DNA from: an uncultured Myxococcales bacterium
Lineage (GTDB): Bacteria; Myxococcota_A; UBA9042
Reading direction: 5' to 3'
Length of the DNA: 64,000 bases
Assembly (NCBI GenBank): GCA_903840165.1
Contig: CAIMEY010000075.1
Location: 44,365-108,364 of the forward strand
In this document: one piece after another, positions 2,147 to 51,210 of the stretch
Position numbering within the stretch: position 1 is the first letter of the stretch
How the letters are laid out: each line of letters starts with the position of its first letter
Notes under the pieces: model-generated
The model's database searches: none
Seen by the model: the letters and a program-made list of their open reading frames with translations, nothing else
Told to the model about the DNA's origin: nothing
Position numbers and translations under genes: made by a program

Positions 2147-3324
2147 GTTCAGACTGTTGCAGCGCTGCTAGCCAGGGGCCTCATATCGGCCTGGTTGGGC
2201 TGCCCGGTTGGGGCGGAACGGGCGTTGTCGCCGCGGATTTGGCCTATGGTCTGGCGCGCGATCATATGCAAGTTAGCCTATTTGCATTGGAATCGCCGAC
2301 ACGTTTCCGAGCCCCGGACCCGCACCTAACCTTGTGCGGCGTCGACTTGGGCGACCACCCTGCGGCCAATGGTCTTGGGTTGTATCCCCTTGCTTTGGCA
2401 GGCAAAATCCTCCAACGCAGCCGCGATCAGCCCATCGATGTGCTGCACCTTCACTACGCCGTCCCGCACGTGGCCGCAGCGGTGCTGGTCAAGCAAGCAC
2501 TAGGGCAGGATTCCCCCAAGGTTATCCTAACTTTTCACGGCACCGATGCGACCGACCTCGCCGCCGACCCGCGCTATCAGCCCCTCTTGCGCAGCGGCGT
2601 TCTGGCGATGGATTTTTGTACGGGCCCCTCGCGGGCCTTGTGTGAAATAGCGCAAAATCATCTGCAGTTACCCAAAGAAGCCGCCTTGACGGTGGTCGCC
2701 AATGGCATTGACACCGACCGTTTCTGTCCGCCGCCACAGCGAAATCGTCAAGTGTTGCGAAGTCTTTTCCCGCACGCCGACGACAACTCGCCGATTCTGC
2801 TCCACGTCTCCAACCTGCGACCGGTCAAACGTCCTCAGGATTTGGCTGCGATCGCTGCCGCCGTACAGGCGCGGATTCCGTGTCGGTTGCTGGTCGTCGG
2901 CGATGGGCCGGGCCGGGCAAACCTCGAGCAATCCCTAGAAAATTCACCGCTGCAGGGCCGCGTCGCCTTCCTTGGTAACCGCGCCGATTGCGTCGACCTG
3001 CTGCAACACGCCGACCTCTTGCTGCTGCCCAGTGCCTCAGAAGGTTTTGGTTTGGCGGCGTTGGAGGCTTTGGCCTGCGGCTTGCCAGTGGTGGCCTCGC
3101 GCACCTGTGGTCTGCCCGAAGTCGTGCAAGACGGCGTGACAGGCCGGCTGCATCCGGTCGGCGATGTGGCCATGGCAGCTGCCTATATTGTTGATTTGCT
3201 TGTAAATTCTGCGGAACATGCCCGCATGTCGGCCCTGGCGCGGCGCGACGCGGTCCAGCGCTTTGACCACCAGCAGGTCGTGGCGCGCTGGCAGGGAATT
3301 TACCGAAGCTTGATGGCTAACTAG
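2143..3324 (+). CDS. bshA: GT4 glycosyltransferase, BshA-like (N-acetyl-alpha-D-glucosaminyl L-malate synthase)
   Basis: N-terminal Gly-rich loop GLPGWGGTGVVAADLAYGLA, block DVLHLHYAVPHV (BshA: DVLHVHYAIPHA), GT4 C-terminal EGFGLAALEALACGLPVV; translationally coupled to bshC. Confidence 0.7.
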   Translation: MSSDCCSAASQGPHIGLVGLPGWGGTGVVAADLAYGLARDHMQVSLFALESPTRFRAPDPHLTLCGVDLGDHPAANGLGLYPLALAGKILQRSRDQPIDVLHLHYAVPHVAAAVLVKQALGQDSPKVILTFHGTDATDLAADPRYQPLLRSGVLAMDFCTGPSRALCEIAQNHLQLPKEAALTVVANGIDTDRFCPPPQRNRQVLRSLFPHADDNSPILLHVSNLRPVKRPQDLAAIAAAVQARIPCRLLVVGDGPGRANLEQSLENSPLQGRVAFLGNRADCVDLLQHADLLLLPSASEGFGLAALEALACGLPVVASRTCGLPEVVQDGVTGRLHPVGDVAMAAAYIVDLLVNSAEHARMSALARRDAVQRFDHQQVVARWQGIYRSLMAN

Positions 3325-3326
3325 GC

Positions 3327-4187
3327 TTACTTCTTGCCTTTCCAATCGACCAGGGCCTTGGCCACTTGGTCCTTATAGAAGAAGTTGGGGTCTTTCTGCC
3401 CCAAATCCCAAGCTTTTTGCGCCAGTTTGTGTGCATCGGCGAAATTGCCGGTCTTGGCGAGGATGTCGGCCTTGATCCAGGTGTTGTACCAAGCCGTCTC
3501 GATGGCCAGCGAGGTGTCGATCAGCTTGAGCGCCTTGGGATAATCCTTTTTCACATCGGCCAGATAGCGTGCTGCATTGGCGTGCGGCCGCCATGTGTTG
3601 CCCAGGGCTGCATCCATGCTGGCTTGCACGTGCGCGTCGGTATCGACCGCGATCGGCACTGAAATAGTGAGTTTTTCCCACTGAAGGTCCAAGCGCGTGC
3701 CGTTGTCCGTCGTGTCGCTCAAGACAATGGCCAAGCGTTCGCGAAACGGGGAAGCCTCGGTCTTGGCCGGCGCGCGGGCGACATCATCTTTGATGTCATA
3801 GGATTTTCCGCCAATCCATAGCCCAAGGTCCTTGCTGAGGATGGCCGTCCACGCCTTCTGATTGGGTAGCAACACGAGCGAATAAGTGCCTGCTTTTACA
3901 GGGATACCTCCGAACGTTACGTCGCGACTGAAGGTCAGCTTGGTCGCGGCGTTGGCCCCCGCGCGCCACGGCTTGTCCCATGGCACCACGCCGCCCCAGA
4001 TGTCGGTGCGGCCTTTGACGCCGGGGCTGGAATACTCGACGCCTACATCGGTGAGGCCGACGCGCTGGGCAACCTTGGCTGCCGGGCTCGGTGCCGGCAA
4101 TTCCAATTGTTGTGCGTAGATAGGTAGGGCCATACAGACCGCGCCGGTGGTGATCAGGGCAGCTAGGTAGGGTGCAAATCGCTTCAC
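3327..4187 (-). CDS. Secreted DUF2911-family protein with C-terminal TPR-like helical region
   Basis: GTG start at 4187 preceded by AAGGATG RBS gives signal peptide VKRFAPYLAALITTGAVCMALPIYAQQ; core block WRAGANAATKLTFSRDVTFGGIPVKAGTYSLVLLPNQKAWTAIL resembles DUF2911; the upstream part of the long ORF (to 4505) is non-protein-like. Confidence 0.6.
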   Translation of the reverse strand: MKRFAPYLAALITTGAVCMALPIYAQQLELPAPSPAAKVAQRVGLTDVGVEYSSPGVKGRTDIWGGVVPWDKPWRAGANAATKLTFSRDVTFGGIPVKAGTYSLVLLPNQKAWTAILSKDLGLWIGGKSYDIKDDVARAPAKTEASPFRERLAIVLSDTTDNGTRLDLQWEKLTISVPIAVDTDAHVQASMDAALGNTWRPHANAARYLADVKKDYPKALKLIDTSLAIETAWYNTWIKADILAKTGNFADAHKLAQKAWDLGQKDPNFFYKDQVAKALVDWKGKK

Positions 4188-6176: not shown

Positions 6177-7550
6177 TCAGCGCGCCGACGAGCCTGGGCT
6201 TTGGCAAACGGGTACCGCCCGATCGACCTGCTGCAACGCCTTGATCTGCTGCTGCAACTGGTCGATCTGCCTCTGCTGATTCTGAATCGTCGCCACGGCC
6301 ATCGATAAATAGCCATACAAATCGACCATGTCCCGCTCGGGGTCGACAGCAGGGCTGTGCGGGTCATCGTCAATGATAAAGCCCAGGTGGCGCCGGCCCT
6401 GGGGCCCCGAGGCGGTGTATCGGTAGCTCGCCAGACGGGTTTGCAGCAACTGGTTGCTCAGTTGGTCTTGGTCCGATGGCGTCAAGTACTGAATTTCCGT
6501 CTTGTACTGCGCCTTGGAGATCGGGCAGCCCTTCTGCTTGGGATCGCTACTGGCGCAAATCAGCATTTGGCCGCAGCCGAGTTTGGGGTCGCATTGGGTG
6601 CCGGCGGCGCTGCAGCTGTCGCCCGTCTTTTCGCTGGTGCACAGCGGGATGCCCGGGGTGGCTTGCCACTGGGTGCCGCAGACCGGATTGCCGCAAGTCA
6701 CATAGTAATTCAGCCCTGTTGCCGGTGCACAGGCGCTGCTACTGGCAACGTTGGTGCCGCTACCCTGGGCGGAGCAGGCGTTGCCGTACGTCTTGCCGTC
6801 GCAGCCACAGACAGGCGCGTACTCGGCCGTACAAGTTTCTGGTTTTGCGACGCAATTTCCTGCCCCGCCGCAGCTTAAGTCGCTAATCATGCAGAACTTG
6901 CCGGTGCCGCAGGTGTCCTTGCCGCCGACCACACAACTTGTTGAAATGCTGCATGAACCTGGGTGATTGATGGTGGTGCCGCCGGCGTTGGCCATGCAAT
7001 CGTTGCAGTAGGCCTTGCCGTCACAGCCGCACAGCATGTCCGCCGCGCAATTTTGCGGGCACATCTGCGGCATGGCGGTGCAAGTTCCTGTTGCGACGCC
7101 ACAACTGCCCGTGGCACCCGCGCAATACTGGTTGGCGGCGCATTGACCGGGGATGCCGACTTGGCAGGCCCCCGCGACTTTGCAACTCCCTGCCTTTGCG
7201 AGGTTTACCCCGGACATCGCTGCCACGCAGGCCGTTGCATAGTCCTGGCCATCGCAGCCGCAGTTGGTCAAGCTGGTGCTAGGAGAACAACCGCTTGGAA
7301 TTACCTTGCATTCACCGTTACCGGCGCAGTCGCCGAGGGCCTTGGCACAAAACTGACCGGCGCTGCAGTCGGTGTTGACCTTGCAATTGCCTGTCACTTC
7401 GCTAGGCGCGGCGTCGGTGTCGCCCAGGGTGCCTGTGTCCCCGCCGTTGCTGCTGGCGTCGGCGGTGCCGCTGCTGTCGTCAAAGACGCAACTGGTCAGA
7501 ACCAAGGTTGAAGAAATGCCCAACAATATCAAATGATTCTTCAGTCTCAC
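6177..7550 (-). CDS. Lipoprotein with three or four Kazal-like Cys-rich modules and a C-terminal intramolecular-chaperone (peptidase S74-like) domain
   Basis: GTG start at 7550 after strong RBS GAGGGAGG; lipoprotein signal VRLKNHLILLGISSTLVLTSC; Kazal signatures CGCDGQDYATAC, CGCDGKAYCNDC, YAPVCGCDGKTYGNAC; C-terminus SKAQYKTEIQYL...RRHLGFIIDDD...LYGYLSMAVATIQNQQRQIDQLQQQIKALQ resembles the endosialidase/tail-fibre chaperone domain (SDxRLKTNI...HIGFIAQEV...coiled coil). Confidence 0.65.
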   Translation of the reverse strand: MRLKNHLILLGISSTLVLTSCVFDDSSGTADASSNGGDTGTLGDTDAAPSEVTGNCKVNTDCSAGQFCAKALGDCAGNGECKVIPSGCSPSTSLTNCGCDGQDYATACVAAMSGVNLAKAGSCKVAGACQVGIPGQCAANQYCAGATGSCGVATGTCTAMPQMCPQNCAADMLCGCDGKAYCNDCMANAGGTTINHPGSCSISTSCVVGGKDTCGTGKFCMISDLSCGGAGNCVAKPETCTAEYAPVCGCDGKTYGNACSAQGSGTNVASSSACAPATGLNYYVTCGNPVCGTQWQATPGIPLCTSEKTGDSCSAAGTQCDPKLGCGQMLICASSDPKQKGCPISKAQYKTEIQYLTPSDQDQLSNQLLQTRLASYRYTASGPQGRRHLGFIIDDDPHSPAVDPERDMVDLYGYLSMAVATIQNQQRQIDQLQQQIKALQQVDRAVPVCQSPGSSAR

Positions 7551-7688
7551 AGCAACCTCCCTCAAACGTCGCGGGCAATCATGCCTGCTCATCCAGTGAA
7601 GGATTCAACGACCGAAAAGTCAAGGCACTTTGTTGCTGGATCAGGGCCTCAAGCCGCACGGGGCGATAGGCCGGCAGCAGGCCCGGGC

Positions 7689-7757
7689 GCCCGCCCTTGA
7701 AACTAGAACCAAACACCGTACCTCTAACCCGCTAGGAACTTCGGGTTAGAGGCACTA
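7689..7757 (-). repeat. Copy 1 of an ~65-80 nt conserved element abutting a stop codon; contains 10-bp perfect inverted repeat cctctaaccc/gggttagagg
   Basis: 86% identical to 39950-40023 (cccttgaaactagaa..aggaacttcgggttagagg..ctag); its final CTA is the TAG stop (minus strand) of the reductase gene; on the gene strand the hairpin is followed by a U-richer tail guuugguucuaguuucaaggg. Confidence 0.6.
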
Positions 7758-8816
7758 GATGCCCGGGCCTTTGAGCGCCAACTCCCGCAGCAAATCGGGA
7801 TGGTTGTGCCGCAGCCACTCAATCGTGTCGGCCAAGGTCTGCCGCGCCGGGCGAGGCTGATACCCCAGTTCTTTCGCGGCGTAACGGGACTTCAGGCCCC
7901 ACCAGCGGCTGCCCATTTCAATGACCACCGGGTCTGGCAGTGGCGAATGGGCACCGGGCCACAAAGCGGTCGCGCGGGCGGCAGCGGAAGCCAATGCATG
8001 GGCAGCTCGCGTCGGTAGCACGCGCGTTGGTGCGATAACGCCTGAAACTTGTTGGCAAAGTTGAAAGAAATCGCCAACGCTCGTTTCGGTGCCGGGCAGG
8101 TGATAGATGGGCCGGCCGGCGGGATGGTCGATGGCGCGCACGATGGCGGTCGCGGCGTCACGAATGTCCGTGAAGTTCATGCCGCCGGACAGCACAAATG
8201 GCAGCTTGTGCCTCAAGAATTTCAAGACGTTGCCTGAGGAGCGGAACTTATGGTCGCCTGGGCCGAGTAAGACCGGCGGACGAATCACCGTCATCGCCAC
8301 ACCCAATTCCACTGCTAGCGCGCGGGCTTGGCGCTCGGCCTTGATCTTGGAGTCGTAGTAAGGCCAACGGCGCGCCAACTTGTCGCAATAAGGCGCATCC
8401 TCATCGGCTTGGTCCCGCGGATTGGTAAAGCAACCCACCGTCCCTGATGTTGAGACAAAGACAAGGCGGCACCGGGTCTTAGCTGCCAAACGCACCATCC
8501 GCAGCGTGCCGCCAATGTTGGTGTCGTACACGTGCTGGGTATTGCGGCGGCTGTGCTGGACCACAGCGGCGAGGTGGAAAATCCCTACAAGACCCTGCAG
8601 TTGAGGGGTATTGGTCCAGCCTTGGTCGTCGGTAACGCTGCCCTGGATGACTTGGACGTCGGGGAAATCCTTAGTCCAATCCATCCGTTGCCACTCGGCC
8701 GGGTGACGCACCAACGCCAAGGGCCTCAAGTCCGGACGCAAAACGCCAAGCGCTGTCAGCACATGGCGTCCAAGAAAGCCGGTCGCGCCGGTCACGAGCA
8801 CTGTCGGTTTGGTCAT
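7755..8816 (-). CDS. NAD(P)-dependent epimerase/dehydratase-family (extended SDR) reductase; candidate acyl/alkyl-DHAP reductase
   Basis: MTKPTVLVTGATGFLGRHVL Rossmann motif at the chosen ATG (8816); last gene of the AGPS / FAR-GNPAT operon. The functional assignment is inferred from operon context only. Confidence 0.6.
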   Translation of the reverse strand: MTKPTVLVTGATGFLGRHVLTALGVLRPDLRPLALVRHPAEWQRMDWTKDFPDVQVIQGSVTDDQGWTNTPQLQGLVGIFHLAAVVQHSRRNTQHVYDTNIGGTLRMVRLAAKTRCRLVFVSTSGTVGCFTNPRDQADEDAPYCDKLARRWPYYDSKIKAERQARALAVELGVAMTVIRPPVLLGPGDHKFRSSGNVLKFLRHKLPFVLSGGMNFTDIRDAATAIVRAIDHPAGRPIYHLPGTETSVGDFFQLCQQVSGVIAPTRVLPTRAAHALASAAARATALWPGAHSPLPDPVVIEMGSRWWGLKSRYAAKELGYQPRPARQTLADTIEWLRHNHPDLLRELALKGPGI

Positions 8817-8906
8817 GGTCTTGCTGGTCCTGGGGCGCTGGAGCTGCACGGACGAGGCCCTCTGGCGCATGGGCAGATGCACAAAATCCCTTGATTTTGC
8901 AGAGGA

Positions 8907-37877: not shown

Positions 37878-39902
37878 GTGTCAGACCTGATTGAACCCAC
37901 TGTTATTACGACTGAAACGCCAGATAAGGGCCCCGGTTTCGCTGAACTTGGCGTCCAGGAATCGCTCGCTCGGACCCTGGTGAGCCTTGGCTTTACCCAG
38001 CCCACGGCGATTCAGGCTCGCGTCATTCCGGCCCTGCTCAATGGGCGCGATGTGCTCGGCCAAGCCCAGACAGGTACAGGGAAAACGGCGGCCTACGGCT
38101 TGCCCCTGCTGCAAAGGCTCAATGCCACCTCGCGGGCGATTCAGGCCTTGGTCCTGGTGCCGACCCGTGAACTGGCAATGCAGGTGACGGCGGCCCTTCT
38201 GGAACTGTCGAGAGATATTGGCAATCCCGGGATTTTGGCGGTCTACGGCGGCAACAGCATGGGCCAGCAACTGCGGGTGTTGCAACAGGGCGTGCGCGTC
38301 TTGGTGGCGACGCCGGGTCGGTTGCTCGACCACTTAGACCGTGGTTCCATTAACTTAAGCGCTGTGCAGATGGTCGTGCTCGATGAAGCCGACGAAATGC
38401 TCAAGATGGGCTTTCTCGACGAGGTCAAGACCATCCTTGATCACGCGCCGCCAGAGCGGCAAACCGCATTACTTTCAGCGACATTGCCGGGCGAAGTGGC
38501 GCGTATTGCCGAGAAGTACCTGCGCAACCCTGACCGGATCAAGGACCTGACCCAAGCCAAGACTGTCGCCACTGTGGAACAACGCTATGCCGTGTGTAAT
38601 CCACAGGATAGGGCTGAAGCGGTTGCGCGAATGCTCGAAGTGGAGCCCTTTGAATCGGCCCTGGTGTTTTCTCGCACCAAGATGGGCTGCGACGAACTGA
38701 CCGATGCCCTGCAACGTCGCGGTGTTCCTTGCGAAGCCTTGCACGGCGACTTGGCCCAAGCAGCGCGTGAGGCCGTGCTGCGGCGCCTGCGCGATGGTCG
38801 GTTGCGCGTCGTCGTGGCGACCGATGTGGCGGCCCGAGGGTTGGATGTGCCGACCTTGGACCTGGTCGTTACGGTGGAATTGCCAGGGCATCTAGAGACT
38901 TATGTGCACCGAATCGGCCGAACGGGGCGAGCTGGCCGTACGGGCACCTCGATCCTCGTGCTTGGGCCGCGCGACGAGCGGAAACTCGTCGAATTGGAAC
39001 GCTTTATCGGCCAGCGTCTCAAGCACCAACGCGTGCCCACGGCGGCGGAAGTCGATGCGGCCAAGCTGGATCGCTTTGTCAGCGATGTCGTTGCCCGCGC
39101 TGAAGAAACGGAGCTGGCGGCCTGGCACGGCGTCATCGAGCGGTGCGTCAGCAAGGGCGCGACCCTGCCTCAACTAGCGGCAGCCCTGTGCCGGATGGCA
39201 GCGCCGCGTGGGCTACAACCGCTGCCCGTGACAGAGATTTTCCACCAGCCCGAGCCGATCGATCCCCTGGACAAACGCGGCGAGAAAAAGCCCCGGGCAA
39301 GCAGTTCGCGCATTGCCATGGCCCAGCCAGCGTCCGTCGCCCCGTTGTCCCCTTCGCCAACGACCAAGCCCGCGCCGGCCAAACCGGCCGCTGTGCCAAG
39401 TCAAGTCACTGCGATTGCAAGGGATTGGCCGATAGCACCTGCCCAAGAGCCGATTCATCGCGAGCCCTCCGCCGTTCAGCCCGCTTCACCGGCCAAGCCC
39501 GCGTCGCGCCAAGACAATTCGCAGCAACGGTCCATGCATCCCAGTGTGACGCTGGTGTCCTTGGGCGTCGGGCGTCGCAATGGCGTGACCCCGGCCATGA
39601 TCGTGGCGTGCTTGACGCGCGAGGGCAATGTGCCGCCCAAGGCCTTGGGACGCATTGAAATTGATGAGAATCACAGCACGGTGGAAATGCCCGCCGACCT
39701 CGGTGCCGCTTTGCCGGACCTGCTGCGCGGTGTGCAGATTTGCGGGCGTTACCTCAATCCGCGGTCGGCCGAAGAGACGGGACGTCCTCAGCGCAGCCGC
39801 CTGCCGCCGAGCAACAAGCCGCGTCCCGGTCAGGGCAACTCGCCACCGATGCAGCGCGCTACGCCATTTCCGGCAGGCAAGGGTAAGCCCAAGAAGTCAT
39901 AA
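37878..39902 (+). CDS. DEAD-box ATP-dependent RNA helicase (DeaD/CsdA-like) with DbpA-type RNA-binding domain and basic tail
   Basis: GTG 37878 after GGAGAA; Q-motif GFTQPTAIQ, AQTGTGKT, DEADEM, SAT, HRIGRTGRAG; C-terminal DbpA-like RBD (VTLVSLGVGRRNGVTPAMIVACL) and Pro/Lys tail. The upstream ATG at 37794 is an alternative start. Confidence 0.85.
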   Translation: MSDLIEPTVITTETPDKGPGFAELGVQESLARTLVSLGFTQPTAIQARVIPALLNGRDVLGQAQTGTGKTAAYGLPLLQRLNATSRAIQALVLVPTRELAMQVTAALLELSRDIGNPGILAVYGGNSMGQQLRVLQQGVRVLVATPGRLLDHLDRGSINLSAVQMVVLDEADEMLKMGFLDEVKTILDHAPPERQTALLSATLPGEVARIAEKYLRNPDRIKDLTQAKTVATVEQRYAVCNPQDRAEAVARMLEVEPFESALVFSRTKMGCDELTDALQRRGVPCEALHGDLAQAAREAVLRRLRDGRLRVVVATDVAARGLDVPTLDLVVTVELPGHLETYVHRIGRTGRAGRTGTSILVLGPRDERKLVELERFIGQRLKHQRVPTAAEVDAAKLDRFVSDVVARAEETELAAWHGVIERCVSKGATLPQLAAALCRMAAPRGLQPLPVTEIFHQPEPIDPLDKRGEKKPRASSSRIAMAQPASVAPLSPSPTTKPAPAKPAAVPSQVTAIARDWPIAPAQEPIHREPSAVQPASPAKPASRQDNSQQRSMHPSVTLVSLGVGRRNGVTPAMIVACLTREGNVPPKALGRIEIDENHSTVEMPADLGAALPDLLRGVQICGRYLNPRSAEETGRPQRSRLPPSNKPRPGQGNSPPMQRATPFPAGKGKPKKS

Positions 39903-39949
39903 GGGAATTGTCGCTCAACGCGGTGCGTCCGGGCTGTCTCTTGAGCCCC

Positions 39950-40023
39950 GCGGCGCGCCCCCTTGAAACTAGAAGCAAACGCAGTAGCTCGGACCCGCAA
40001 GGAACTTCGGGTTAGAGGTCCTA
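39950..40023 (-). repeat. Copy 2 of the ~65-80 nt element abutting a stop codon (degenerate hairpin arm)
   Basis: 86% identity to 7689-7757; its terminal CTA is again the TAG stop (minus strand) of the upstream gene (40021..42888); also sits 50 nt after the convergent helicase stop. Confidence 0.6.
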
Positions 40024-42888
40024 GTACAAGCCCCAGTAGCCAAAGGTCGTGTACGAACTGCCGTAGAACCAGGCGCGGCCGTTGGAGCCTGAGCACCCGT
40101 TTTGATAGCCGAAATAGGCCTTGCCACTCTGAGGTCCGGGTGGTCCCCAGCCGTTGCCGGCGCAGTCGCCGCCGGTGTCCGCGCAGGTGCCAACGCCGTA
40201 GCAGGCTTCGCACGCCGCCTTGGCCTGCACCGAGCTTGCTGGGTCAAGTGCGCCACTGTACTGGAATTTCGTCGCTCCGGTGGGGCAGGCATAGCCGCTG
40301 CCGTTGGCAAACAGGGCGTGGAAGGAGCCGCAACTTCCGTTGGTACACGCGGAGTTGCACACCTTGCCGCAGGCGCTGCAGTTGTTGACGTCGCTCAGCA
40401 GGTTGACTTCGCAGCCGTCCGACTTCTTATTGTCGTTGCAGTCCGAGAAGTTGGCGTTGCAAGCGCCCGTGCAAACGCCGGCCGCGCAGGTGGGCGCGCC
40501 GATATTGTTGTTGGAGCATTTGCCGCCGCACGCCGCGCAGTTGTTGGCGTCCGTTTGCAGGTTGGCCTCACAGCCATTGCTCATGTCGCTGTCGCAATCT
40601 GCGAAATTGGCTTGGCAAGTGCAGGCATAGCTGCCCGGCGTATTGGTGCAGACGGTATTGGCGCCGCACTTGGCCGTGCCGTTCGCGCACTCGTCAATAT
40701 CGGTGCAAATGAAGCCGTTGCCGACAAATCCCTTGTTACATACGCAGGATACGTTCTGGGCTCCCGGCGTGCACAGGGCGTTGGCGTCACAGCCACCGCT
40801 CGACAAGCACTTGCCGCCCGCACAGGTGTCGCCGCCGGTGCAGCCGTTGTTGTCACTGCAGGGCTTGGTATTGTTGATGAATACGCAGCCTTTGTTGGGA
40901 TCGCAGCTGTCGTCGGTGCAGTTGTTGCCGTCGTTGCAGGTAAAGGACGGGCCGATGATGCAAAACCCGTCGGCGCACAGGTCGCCGATGGTGCAAACGT
41001 CGCCATCATTGCATGGTAACTTGTTGTTTTTATGCAGACAACCGCTCGATGGGTCGCAGGCGTCATCGGTGCAGCTGTTGCCGTCATCGCAGGTCAGGAC
41101 CACGCCCGGGGCGCAGCTGCCGGCCGCGCAGGAGTCGCCGGCCGTGCAGGAGTTGCCGTCGCTGCAGGGGGCAATATTGGCCGCGTGCTGGCAGCCAACC
41201 TGCGGATCGCAGGAGTCATTGGTGCACGGATTGCCATCATTGCAACCCACTTCCTGTCCCGAATTGCACTGTCCGCCGGCGCAGGCGTCGCCCAAGGTGC
41301 AGACACTGCCGTCATCGCAAGGTGCGGTGTTGGCCAGGTGCGTGCAACCCAGCACAGAGTCACAGCTATCGTCGGTGCACGGATTGAGGTCCTTGCAGTC
41401 CTGGGCCTTGCCGGGAACGCACTTGGCGGCGACGCAGGTATCGACGACGGTGCAACCGTTGCTGTCGTCGCAAGTCGCTGTATTTGCTGTAAAAATACAG
41501 CCTTTCTTGGTGTCGCAGCTGTCGTCGGTGCACGGATTGCCGTCGCTGCACGGCAGCAGGCCACTGGACTGGCAAATCCCGCCGGCGCAAGTGTCGCCTA
41601 GGGTGCAGATGTTGCCATCGGTGCAAGGTAACTCATTGTTTTTAAATACGCAACCGATGATCGCGTCGCAGGTGTCCGTGGTGCACGCGTTGTTGTCGTC
41701 GCAGACGGTCGCCGCGCCAGGCAGGCAGGCGCCTTTGGTGCAGGCATCGCCGACGGTGCACACATTGTTGTCCGAGCAGCCCGCGCCGCTGCTGGCGTCG
41801 TACTGACAGCCCTTAGTTGGGTCACAAGTATCTGCTGTGCAAGGGTTTTTGTCGTCGCATTGCGTGCCCGTACCCTTGCAGACGCCGTCGCTGCAGTGGT
41901 CATCTGTGGTGCAGGCGCTTTGGTCGTCGCAGGCGCCGGTCTTGGGCGGGTGCTGGCACTGGCCGGCGATGCAATTGTCGTATGTACACGCAAGGTTGTC
42001 GTCGCACATGCCGACAGTCGGCTCGTCGGTCTGGCCGTCGCAGTTGTCATCCTTGAGGTTGCACTGTTCCGGCAAGGCGCTTGGCGCATCGCAGCCACCT
42101 AGGCCATTGGGCCCGCAACTCCGCTTTCCTGTGCAGGTTCCTGCGTCATTGCCGTTCTCGCATGCTGTGCTGAGCGCCAACTGCGTGGCTCGGGCGTCGC
42201 AGCCGCAAACGAGGTCTTGCTTGATGCATTGGCTGGACTTGACGCCGCCAGCGCTGGCCTTTTCCTGGCAGGTAAAGCCGGCAGGGCATTGGCTGGAATC
42301 GCCGCACGGCGCGCCGCAGAAATGTCCCAATAGTGTTCCGGTGTTATCGGAGTAGGGTACGCAGCGATTGTCAGCACCGCCGAGGACGTTGTTGCAATCG
42401 CTGTCGGCTTTGCAGGGCTCGCACAGTCGAGGCGTCGCCGGCGTGCAGACATTGACGATGTCCCCGCCACTGCTGGACAATTGGCTGCACTTAAAGCCCG
42501 TGGCGCACCCGCCGGCGCACAGGGCGGCGCAGGCTTTGCCTCCATCAATCTCGAGACAAAATCCGGAGTTGCAATCGCTATTGGCCTGACAAACGCAGCC
42601 CGCCTCTGTGCAAGCCGCATCGCCGCCAGATCCTTGGTCGCTGGCCGAGTCGTTGCCGGCGTCGGCGCTGTCCGCCACATCGACCGATGCCACGTCTGCT
42701 TGAGAATCATCTGTTACATCAAGAGCTTGCTCGGTATCGCCCAAGGTCTCAGCAACCTGCGCTAAGTCATTGGTCACCTGCAACTCGTCGCCGCCGCTAC
42801 TCGGGGCCGGGCTGTTGCTGCACGCACTTGCACCAACAATAGCTAGCCAAGTTAGGACAATGATTGGACAAATCGGCGATCTTCTCAT
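40021..42888 (-). CDS. Giant (955 aa) secreted lipoprotein made of Myxococcus-type cysteine-rich repeats plus EGF-like/Ca-binding module
   Basis: Signal MRRSPICPIIVLTWLAIVGASAC; more than 15 repeats of the CDDxNxCTxDxCDxxxGC type (DGNPCTDDSCD, CDDNNACTTDTCD); CTDIDECANGTAKCGANTVCTN EGF-Ca motif. Confidence 0.8.
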   Translation of the reverse strand: MRRSPICPIIVLTWLAIVGASACSNSPAPSSGGDELQVTNDLAQVAETLGDTEQALDVTDDSQADVASVDVADSADAGNDSASDQGSGGDAACTEAGCVCQANSDCNSGFCLEIDGGKACAALCAGGCATGFKCSQLSSSGGDIVNVCTPATPRLCEPCKADSDCNNVLGGADNRCVPYSDNTGTLLGHFCGAPCGDSSQCPAGFTCQEKASAGGVKSSQCIKQDLVCGCDARATQLALSTACENGNDAGTCTGKRSCGPNGLGGCDAPSALPEQCNLKDDNCDGQTDEPTVGMCDDNLACTYDNCIAGQCQHPPKTGACDDQSACTTDDHCSDGVCKGTGTQCDDKNPCTADTCDPTKGCQYDASSGAGCSDNNVCTVGDACTKGACLPGAATVCDDNNACTTDTCDAIIGCVFKNNELPCTDGNICTLGDTCAGGICQSSGLLPCSDGNPCTDDSCDTKKGCIFTANTATCDDSNGCTVVDTCVAAKCVPGKAQDCKDLNPCTDDSCDSVLGCTHLANTAPCDDGSVCTLGDACAGGQCNSGQEVGCNDGNPCTNDSCDPQVGCQHAANIAPCSDGNSCTAGDSCAAGSCAPGVVLTCDDGNSCTDDACDPSSGCLHKNNKLPCNDGDVCTIGDLCADGFCIIGPSFTCNDGNNCTDDSCDPNKGCVFINNTKPCSDNNGCTGGDTCAGGKCLSSGGCDANALCTPGAQNVSCVCNKGFVGNGFICTDIDECANGTAKCGANTVCTNTPGSYACTCQANFADCDSDMSNGCEANLQTDANNCAACGGKCSNNNIGAPTCAAGVCTGACNANFSDCNDNKKSDGCEVNLLSDVNNCSACGKVCNSACTNGSCGSFHALFANGSGYACPTGATKFQYSGALDPASSVQAKAACEACYGVGTCADTGGDCAGNGWGPPGPQSGKAYFGYQNGCSGSNGRAWFYGSSYTTFGYWGLY

Positions 42889-49010: not shown

Positions 49011-49485
49011 GACCAGCGACCGACGCTTGCTGGCTCAGGCGGTCCTGCGTCGACGCGTCAGCGCAGCGCTTGGGCCTAGCCGAGGCAGCCAAAGGTTTGC
49101 ACCTACAGCCGCTTGCGCCTGGAGCGGCGATCGCCCGAGTTGCTTGCACTCATTGTCGAGACGCGAAACCCCCGGTTCAATCTTACACTTTCTTGCGCGT
49201 CGGCATGGCGTGCACCAAGGCCGCCAAGGAAACCCGCGCCGTTACAACGGCCAAACCCACACCACCGACAATTGTTCCCACCAGCACGAGGTTGCCCATG
49301 ATCTGCTCCACGCGGCCAATTCACAGCCAAGTGTGGACGCTAGAACGGTCTGGGGAAAACGCAAAAAAACGATCCAGAATGCACGGTTGTCCCCTGTACT
49401 GCCGGGCAAGAATCGCGCGCCGCGGCAGTTGCAAAACAGGTGTAATTCTGCCGCAGAACTGCGGCAGAACTGCCGCGAACTGTCG

Positions 49486-51210
49486 CTAAACCATAATCCG
49501 CTCAGACACTTGTAACGCCTGACGCAGCCTCTGACTCAAGGCCTGACCAAAGGCCTGCAGGGTCAACTCACCAATCCCCTGGGCGCTATGGGCAAAACGC
49601 GGTCGCCACGAGCCGTTGTCTTGTAACTCGGCGGTAATTTGCAGAGAAACCTGTTGTTCGCCGCTGCCAAAGCGCAACTCCACCGCCACCTCGTCGCGCT
49701 GCCAACTCGCGGCCCCAGCTTGGAGTCCAGCCAAGGGCTGCCGCGTCAACTGTTCAACCAGTAACGCTAATTGCTGTCGTGCCCGTTGCAAGGCTTGCTG
49801 TCGAATTCGCGCCGCGCGCAGGGCTGCATCGTGGGCCAGTTGCAGATCGCGCAGGGGCGGCAGGTCACACTCCTGCGAGAAAAGCGTAAAAAGTTCGAGC
49901 ACTTGCTTGTGCAGCTCGGCGCAGTCAACAGCGCCCCGGGGTTGGGAGGCCGCCCTTAGGACCATCTTGTCACTGCGCGCCAGTAGCCAGGGCTTTGCGG
50001 CGATCGGCACCGACGTCGCTTGTACCACAAAGGTGTAACCTTGCAGTTCTATGTGAATTTCTCCGCGAGCCTCGTCGGACTTGACCACGCGACCCGCACG
50101 GGACTGCAACCACGGTTCCAGGGTCGGCAGGGCCAGCAAAGGCAGCAGGCGCCCGCGCAACGGCAACTGCCAAGCCAAGGCCGGTGTGACGGGCTGGAAT
50201 TCAGAATCACCATAGAATTGCCGGTACTTGTCAAACACACCGCCGCAGACGCCATCGAATACGCACTGGCTACAGCCGCTGGGCTTGTGCTTGTCGACGC
50301 GCTTATCCTCGTATTTGTTGAATCCTTCCTGGGTCTTGCCCTGCCCATCGGCCGCAACCGTCACCGTATCCTCGCCGTCATGGTGGATGCGATGTTGCAG
50401 CTCCGGCATGGTGCAATAGGGAATGTTGCCGAAATTCAAGTCGAAATCGTCGCCCTTTTGGCTGCTGAGTCTTGACTCCAACTCCGCCAGCGGCCCGCGC
50501 AACTCGCTGTACTTAGGCATGATCGTCTGCAGATAGGCGTCGGTGCGATCGCCGGCGTCGCGGGGACGGATCATGTCCAGGTGCAGGTTTTCGAAGTGAT
50601 ATTGGCTCGCCAAATCAGCAAGTTCGGGCAGCGATTGCGCGTTAGAGGTGACCACGCAGCAATTGCCACTGAGGCGCTGTCCTTGGCCATCAAGTACTTG
50701 TAACGATTCAATAATTCTCTTCCACGCCCCAGGGTTGCAGGTCGTCGCGTCATGGGCGTCCTGCGTGCCGCCTTGCAATGAAAAACGCCAAATCACCCGC
50801 TGCTGACGCCCTGGGCCCAGTAGGTCCAGAATCTCCCCAACTTGATTGCGGAATCGCGCCTTGGGCGTCATGACGCCATTGGTAAAGATCACCAGTTCGG
50901 CAAAGTCGAGGTCGACCGCGGCGCGCAAGAGATCCAAAAAGGTGCTCTGAAGCGTCGGCTCTCCACCTAGAAACGTAATTTTTTCAGCGCCATTTGCCCT
51001 GGCGGTGCGCAGTTGGGCCAGGATCGGCTCGGCAGGCAACTGCGGGGCTCTCTTCTGCTCAGACAGCTGTCCGGACACGCAGAACACGCAACGATTGTTG
51101 CATAAATGCCCCAGCTGCACTTCCACTTGGCGCTGCGGTTCAGCCACGGTCCGCTTCTCCCTGCGGCAGCGCCCAATTCCGGCGTGCCCGTGTTGTAGAC
51201 TAGCGGGCAT
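49486..51210 (-). CDS. Radical SAM enzyme with partial SPASM/twitch-like Cys cluster and ~230-aa C-terminal domain of unknown function
   Basis: CNNRCVFC (CxxxCxxC) plus GGEPTL; downstream CSQCVFDGVCGG (Cx2Cx5C); 574 aa. Confidence 0.75.
   Translation of the reverse strand: MPASLQHGHAGIGRCRREKRTVAEPQRQVEVQLGHLCNNRCVFCVSGQLSEQKRAPQLPAEPILAQLRTARANGAEKITFLGGEPTLQSTFLDLLRAAVDLDFAELVIFTNGVMTPKARFRNQVGEILDLLGPGRQQRVIWRFSLQGGTQDAHDATTCNPGAWKRIIESLQVLDGQGQRLSGNCCVVTSNAQSLPELADLASQYHFENLHLDMIRPRDAGDRTDAYLQTIMPKYSELRGPLAELESRLSSQKGDDFDLNFGNIPYCTMPELQHRIHHDGEDTVTVAADGQGKTQEGFNKYEDKRVDKHKPSGCSQCVFDGVCGGVFDKYRQFYGDSEFQPVTPALAWQLPLRGRLLPLLALPTLEPWLQSRAGRVVKSDEARGEIHIELQGYTFVVQATSVPIAAKPWLLARSDKMVLRAASQPRGAVDCAELHKQVLELFTLFSQECDLPPLRDLQLAHDAALRAARIRQQALQRARQQLALLVEQLTRQPLAGLQAGAASWQRDEVAVELRFGSGEQQVSLQITAELQDNGSWRPRFAHSAQGIGELTLQAFGQALSQRLRQALQVSERIMV

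Follow-up and report, generated by a model that had tools for sequence, protein, structure and literature searches.

Why would two unrelated genes of an uncultured Myxococcales bacterium end on the same short hairpin? In the 64,000-nt stretch of DNA analysed here (the window; contig CAIMEY010000075.1, positions 44,365 to 108,364), a unit of about 80 nt occurs twice, in the same orientation and in unrelated surroundings, each time at the stop codon of a minus-strand gene. An initial annotation had proposed a family-specific intrinsic terminator, a 3'-UTR-derived small RNA or processing site, or a REP/MITE-like element. Read from its sequence, the hairpin is a pair of inward-facing ends of an IS1634-family insertion sequence (IS) with the interior missing. 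An IS origin of the element is highly probable, and the best explanation, which we hold with good confidence, is a miniature, non-coding, MITE-like derivative of an IS1634-family (IS4-related, DDE transposase) element.

Within the window, blastn aligned the two copies over 81 nt at 84% identity (E = 1e-17), so they are present and co-oriented as described, and slightly longer than the initial annotation had them. A repeat search of the window returned 7686-7758 against 39952-40024 as a match of 73 nt at 85% (family D5), and each of two conserved cores, a 15-mer and an 18-mer, has exactly two occurrences in the window, where shuffles predict 0.02-0.03. With a word size of 7, blastn gave no third copy within the 64 kb. 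Among the repeat families listed for the 64 kb, the unit is the sole non-coding dispersed repeat, the others being either internal 153-nt repeats of the gene for a 955-aa protein or short matches of 69-85%. Copy 1 lies between the stop codon of an SDR gene and a Kazal-type lipoprotein gene, and copy 2 fills most of the 118-nt gap between two convergent genes, those of the 955-aa protein and of a DEAD-box helicase. The coding flanks of the two copies are unrelated and the similarity stops at ~80 nt, which rules out a local duplication reaching into coding sequence. Past that point, local alignment of the downstream flanks gave no significant similarity (p 0.15-0.2 against random window pieces), and an extended MITE of ~150 nt with a degenerate far terminal inverted repeat (TIR; near 7601-7625 and 39880-39902) was rejected on that ground. 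The probability that the resemblance stems from chance or from misassembly is negligible. The E value of 1e-17 speaks against chance; copy 1 is unchanged across four independent assemblies of the same organism (L006-L009) and is thus not an assembly artefact, and the tail of copy 2 is identical in two Logan contigs. The records of the source organism are ENA assemblies labelled BUCK21-1 and two Logan runs.

The two copies have the following parts, each given with what supports or characterizes it.

7679-7758, minus strand: repeat unit, copy 1, ~80 nt (blastn, repeat search, four assemblies).
7755-7757, minus strand: TAG that ends the SDR/epimerase ORF (7755-8882), separated from the IS terminus by 2 nt, at offset -6 from CTCTAAC.
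7734-7752, minus strand: complete IS1634-family TIR of copy 1, CCTCTAACCCGAAGTTCCT, forming the 5' arm and the loop (exact 18-mer at IS boundaries in 11 loci).
7721-7731, minus strand: inverted outer 11 nt of the TIR in copy 1, CGGGTTAGAGG, forming the 3' arm (10/10 match, p 0 in shuffles).
7686-7720, minus strand: conserved 35-nt tail of copy 1, TACGGTGTTTGGTTCTAGTTTCAAGGGCGGGCGCC (conserved between copies).
39944-40024, minus strand: repeat unit, copy 2 (blastn, repeat search).
40021-40023, minus strand: TAG that ends the ORF of the 955-aa Cys-repeat protein (40021-42888; ORF map).
40000-40018, minus strand: complete TIR of copy 2, identical to that of copy 1 (0/19 positions differ).
39987-39997, minus strand: decayed inverted terminus of copy 2, CGGGTCCGAGC (8/10 scored positions match).
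39952-39986, minus strand: tail of copy 2, inside which two Logan contigs end.

Read along the minus strand, the order is thus C-TAG, 2 variable bases, the TIR CCTCTAACCCGAAGTTCCT, 2 bases, CGGGTTAGAGG and the tail TACGGTGTTTGGTTCTAGTTTCAAGGGCGGGCGCC. The complete TIR measures 18-19 nt, the spacer 2 nt and the palindrome 32 nt, with ~35-45 nt of attached sequence. The outer terminus of the TIR in copy 1 faces the SDR gene, and the loop of the hairpin is the inner part of the complete TIR.

The identity of the longer arm comes from its occurrences elsewhere. A scan for CCTCTAACCCGAAGTTCCT of one genome per species gave four matches, and a scan of metagenomes for the 18-mer CTCTAACCCGAAGTTCCT gave 24 loci. 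About four matches would be expected by chance under uniform base composition, a reading of the genome matches that was overturned by the metagenome scan and by the match in L004, which adjoins an IS1634 transposase gene. On the outer side of the 18-mer the sequence is always unrelated between loci and the preceding base varies. On the inner side a contig end lies within 145 nt in 9 of 28 matches, as is typical of assembly breaks in repeats. Where at least 220 nt were available on the inner side (19 loci), an IS1634-type transposase gene starts ~140-170 nt or ends ~70-95 nt inside the 18-mer in 11 cases, in either orientation (L004, L012-L015, L025, L026, L029, L032, L034 and L035). These transposases match NCBIfam NF033559 at 309.5 bits (cut-off 100) and Pfam DDE_Tnp_1. 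Complete elements of 1.9-2.0 kb with an inverted repeat at both ends are seen in L012 (12-1918) and L032 (54-2028), where the opposite end matches the 18-mer at 14/18 and 13/18 positions, respectively. Its inverted presence at both ends contradicts a reading of the 18-mer as host sequence beside IS1634 insertions. Together, the unrelated outer sides, the contig breaks, the transposase genes inside and the inverted copies show the 18-mer to be the TIR of a clade of the IS1634 family. This family (IS1634, IS1549) has been described as an emerging, IS4-related one with a length of 1.5-2 kb, in agreement with that of the complete elements, and poorly conserved ends (De Palmenaer et al. 2008, PMC2266710).

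One end of these IS1634-family elements carries the terminus CTCTAACCCGAAGTTCCT of 18 nt without any change, although their transposases are only ~45-70% identical to the two queries. Subterminal DNA is unrelated among elements that share the exact terminus, and in the complete copies the opposite end is far more degenerate. As a marker, the exactly conserved terminus could help to find IS1634-family elements as well as miniature derivatives of them. The MAG DOM43_bin32 contains two copies of a 74-nt sequence that starts with this IS terminus and has no transposase (L003 5730-5803, minus strand, and L002 78-153); one copy lies between ORFs that, from their sequence, look like type III CRISPR-Cas RAMP (Cmr-like) genes, and the other at a contig end. 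L027 (6930-7040) and L016 (128-145, minus strand) share a TIR-bearing sequence of ~100 nt, placed between host genes and without a transposase gene, and miniature or solo IS1634 ends are thus not unique to the window.

What sets the window element apart from a normal IS end is the short arm. Directly after the TIR, the inverted terminus matches at 10/10 positions in copy 1 and at 8/10 in copy 2, whereas 28 other IS ends never exceed 7/10 there, so the arrangement is end to end. The hairpin is then accounted for by two IS ends that face each other after deletion of the transposase gene, and an RNA function is not needed to explain it. The perfect stem reported for copy 1 is borne out, with an 11-bp core that extends to 14 bp around a 10-nt loop. 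This stem-loop has a predicted free energy of -25.2 kcal/mol (z -6.4); for copy 2 the value is -11 kcal/mol (z -0.7), at the level of shuffled sequence. In copy 2 there are three mismatches in the gene-strand arm CGGGTCCGAGC, and none of these three changes to the inverted 11-mer is matched by a change in the TIR. Its view that primary sequence rather than structure is conserved agrees with the two fold energies, and the IS origin accounts for the pattern. A weak second, G-U-rich hairpin is predicted in both tails, in differing registers.

The differences between the copies are unevenly spread, with 0/19 in the TIR against 13/62 in the remainder (Fisher one-sided p 0.022, for a comparison that was picked after the data had been seen and rests on two sequences). 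Such conservation of the TIR is as expected if its sequence is constrained by transposase recognition. That the TIR is kept and the stem is not fits a propagated unit whose TIR is under selection, not a structure-dependent RNA element.

The other end of the unit is less canonical. The 80-nt unit lacks TIR-like sequence on its right, which leaves its mobilisation by the ordinary TIR-to-TIR route unexplained. Neither the 32-nt palindrome nor the 80-nt unit is flanked by a convincing target-site duplication; the TCTAGT to the left of copy 1 is repeated nowhere but inside the tail, and in copy 2 the repetition is limited to CTAG. The tail showed no significant similarity to the sampled IS1634 ends. 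An assignment of the tail to IS subterminal sequence was not accepted, the best match being to L025 at p 0.04 and 0.13 before multiple-test correction.

We propose that the ~80-nt unit formed once and was then copied to at least one further site. Its internal junction and its extent match in unrelated contexts, which suggests that it moved as a whole. Copying would most likely have been done by a transposase acting in trans from a full-length IS elsewhere in the genome, a parent IS that we assume the host to carry; for mobilisation in trans as such we regard the chances as evenly balanced. A tblastn search with two IS1634 transposases detected none in the 64 kb (best E 2.3), none was found in ~4 kb beyond the window, and each copy is bordered by host genes. 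At 39977 and 39979, inside the tail of copy 2 and just before the hairpin, Logan contigs of two different runs (L036 and L037) break off, and copy 1 is traversed by Logan contigs from the same runs. Logan assemblies use k = 31. At that k, the exact matches between the two known copies are too short to break a graph and would not have caused the contig ends, which suggest a graph branch arising from a further copy or from a strain variant.

As the initial annotation observed, plus-strand CTA in the element is the minus-strand TAG stop of two unrelated genes, and this is true of both copies. The spacing from TAG to the IS terminus is 2 nt in copies 1 and 2 alike, a conserved CTAG sits 2-3 nt outside the IS terminus in both, and an in-frame TAA follows three codons past the TAG, inside the repeat. 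None of the other sampled IS1634 ends has a stop codon at that offset or a CTAG beside it. The CTAG may be part of the repeated unit, perhaps left over from the first target duplication; otherwise this element would have a target preference of its own. If the unit brings its own stop, the chance of both genes entering it in the same frame is ~1 in 9. The C-terminus of the SDR protein is not shorter than those of its homologues, and no truncation is evident.

The bases adjoining the terminus are ATCTAGTG and TACTAGGA, and the window has a G+C content of 61.6%. Target duplications of the IS1634 family are AT-rich tracts of 5-6 bp (PMC2266710). Since the family targets AT-rich tracts and the genome is ~62% G+C, gene ends are likely targets. 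Siting at stop codons would then follow from a concentration of AT-rich targets at gene ends, together with selection that would remove insertions elsewhere in genes and tolerate those at their ends.

Three further loci illustrate what the terminal repeat can do to a gene. In L022, L024 and L030, reading frames of the host that exceed 100 codons enter an IS end and stop at the TAA of the TIR (CTC-TAA, offset +3), so the repeat can supply stops to interrupted genes. Separately, CTAG is ~2-fold depleted in the window (106 found against ~223 expected from base composition). The unit carries CTAG three times in copy 1 and twice in copy 2, a richness that fits a foreign origin of lower G+C content.

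A once-formed and then copied unit has to be weighed against a history in which nothing short ever moved. Full-length IS1634-family copies could have inserted after each gene and lost their interiors separately, for instance through slippage from one inverted end to the other of the kind seen when Tn10 undergoes nearly precise excision, leaving dead remnants that were never mobilised as an 80-nt unit. The lack of a target duplication and of a right-hand TIR in the 80-nt unit is in keeping with two such fossils, as are the decay of copy 2 and the orphan TIR fragments without transposase in other organisms (L016/L027, L022, L023 and L024). However, despite their unrelated surroundings the two copies agree in their junction (TIR, 2 nt, inverted 11 nt), in the 35-nt tail and in their outer limit, and independent deletions would hardly yield identical products. 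The tail would moreover have to come from inside the IS, and none of the sampled IS ends resembles it. Because junction, tail and outer limit are identical, we favour a unit formed once and consider separate fossils unlikely.

The same geometry could be read as function, the IS remnant having been exapted as an RNA element at the 3' end of the message, that is, a terminator, a 3' stabiliser against exonucleases or a translation-coupled regulator resembling the REP sequences near stop codons in E. coli. Both copies stand in the same orientation to the upstream gene and at the same 2-nt distance from its TAG, a moderately U-rich tail follows the hairpin, and the copy 1 fold is the most stable among 41 post-stop 60-mers, if marginally so (-25.2 against -25.1 and -24.9 kcal/mol). 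The stem of copy 2, however, is at the level of shuffled sequence without compensatory changes, and the nearest relative lacks the element in its syntenic SDR-Kazal intergenic region (L005), which is itself quite different. Nor does the element have the G+C-rich stem-loop with an immediate U tract of an intrinsic terminator: a terminator scan gave no terminator-like site in 7400-8000, and a U-rich run begins only ~7 nt past the stem. Post-stop hairpins are not generally used in the window, where post-stop 60-mers are no more structured than random ones (median -17.9 against -17.4 kcal/mol) and terminator-like sites are no commoner than in shuffles (19 against 21.6; 9 against 21.0). At the gathering threshold, Rfam gave no match in the window or in 20 IS loci, and at E up to 10 the locus had only two chance-level matches, on the other strand and outside the hairpin; ARAGORN found no tRNA or tmRNA. 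Two of the original proposals are therefore unsupported: the family-specific intrinsic terminator on the scan, the late U-run, the lost stem of copy 2 and the missing enrichment, and the 3'-UTR small RNA or processing site on the lack of an Rfam match and the absence of the element from the relative's locus. A selected RNA function acquired by exaptation is improbable, although an incidental effect of copy 1 on mRNA 3' ends or terminating ribosomes is possible; its stem-loop in the 3' UTR may impede exonucleases or RNA polymerase as a by-product, and copy 2 is already losing its stem. The remaining proposal, a REP/MITE-like element, holds for its class, and the arms are those of an IS1634 TIR. 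Its REP part, a REP/REPIN-type element mobilised by a RAYT (Y1 transposase), is very improbable. A short extragenic palindrome after stop codons would suit it, as would GTAG (copy 2) or GTAC (copy 1) ahead of the stem on the plus strand, but the arms belong to a DDE-type element, the copies differ in the head tetranucleotide and share a long non-palindromic tail, and the 64 kb contain two copies with no singlet arms elsewhere in the window.

A small peptide was also considered and rejected because coding is not conserved. In a plus-strand frame starting at TTG, 4 of the first 12 codons differ between the copies, all of them non-synonymously, and the stop codon of copy 1 corresponds to a lysine codon in copy 2. 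A promoter (sigma-70 or sigma-54), a CRISPR-like repeat (TTGAAAC), an FRT-like site, a PYLIS or read-through signal and an IS630-type TA/CTAG insertion were dropped as well; across this list, the peptide included, the grounds were coding not conserved, a motif not present in both copies, or missing context or terminal repeats. Elsewhere in the window, a strong hairpin on a repeated GCAGTTCTGC motif, followed by TTTTG, lies at ~49429-49488 on the minus strand after the stop codon of the ORF at 49486-51210. With -24.9 kcal/mol, it resembles a terminator more than any other post-stop structure observed in the window.

The comparative reach of the unit is narrow. The closest named homologues carry the annotation Myxococcales or Deltaproteobacteria; among SDR homologues, the nearest from another species is only 67% identical. 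The tail pattern had 0 matches in metagenomes, the tail and junction patterns had 0 matches in viral contigs, and the hairpin had no match among plasmids. The element was not found in L011, the locus of homologue P0148, which has 65% G+C and is probably from another organism. On these sequence comparisons the whole unit looks lineage-specific and the TIR widespread. As a separate observation on the nearest relative, L005 carries GGTTCGGG/GGGAC-type runs followed ~100 nt later by CCGGCTCCGG-type runs (3069-3330), which could pair into a long imperfect inverted repeat.

Set beside known systems, the window element resembles IS1634-family elements in its 18-19-nt terminal repeat, identical to that of elements encoding NF033559 transposases, in a terminus that starts with C, and in the AT-rich bases next to it. 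TIRs of both ends are present, the second truncated to 11 nt and placed beside the first. In contrast to a family member, it has no transposase gene and no recognisable 5-6-bp target duplication, and it measures 32-80 nt as opposed to 1.5-2 kb.

Bacterial MITEs, such as the Correia elements of Neisseria and Nezha of cyanobacteria, are non-autonomous IS derivatives that, at gene ends, frequently provide stop codons or terminator-like structures. In the classical form, a MITE is bounded by a TIR on either side, is accompanied by a target duplication and is present in tens to hundreds of copies. Like them, the window element is short, non-coding, dispersed and intergenic at gene ends, with IS-type terminal repeats and a hairpin. 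It differs in having both TIR copies at one end of the unit and none at the other, with no duplication seen and two copies known. Nearly precise excision of Tn10/IS10, reportedly described by Foster et al. in 1981, is said to leave remnants that likewise consist of a short palindrome of two inverted termini with the interior lost, but remnants of that kind remain where the transposon was and do not spread to other sites with a tail attached. REP sequences near stop codons in E. coli contribute to mRNA stabilisation, and those within ~15 nt of a stop codon reportedly stall terminating ribosomes, according to work attributed to Liang, Rudd and Deutscher in 2015. The window element is likewise an extragenic palindrome in sense orientation within the ribosome footprint of the stop; unlike REP sequences, it derives from the terminus of a DDE-type IS and not from a RAYT-associated REP, and it has a stem that is not conserved in copy 2.

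For this locus the result is mainly a correction, since what had appeared as a candidate regulatory RNA or lineage-specific terminator is best read as transposon debris. In annotation it should be labelled as a mobile-element remnant and should not become the basis for an RNA family. It also shows that, in a G+C-rich genome, gene ends can acquire stop codons and stem-loops from IS termini. A more far-reaching and improbable possibility is an unusual, still active non-autonomous element with one canonical IS1634 end, directed to CTAG at stop codons and co-opted in this Myxococcota-like lineage as a portable gene-end module. If true, the module would bring TAG and TAA stops and a stem-loop, that is, a stop codon together with a 3' stabiliser or terminator, and its mobilisation would be one-ended or would take along a former target duplication.

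Two other observations concern genes in the window. The gene for the 955-aa protein contains, at 40800-41700, at least six tandem 153-nt (51-aa) Cys-rich repeats of 64-73% identity, with a weak match to Pfam Dicty_CTDC, and Cys-rich repeat proteins of this kind form large families in related MAGs. A BshC-like gene (bacillithiol synthesis) at 536-2146 adjoins glycosyltransferase and PIG-L deacetylase genes, the flanking part being read on L006 and L009; the group may be a bacillithiol biosynthesis cluster of a Myxococcota-like MAG.
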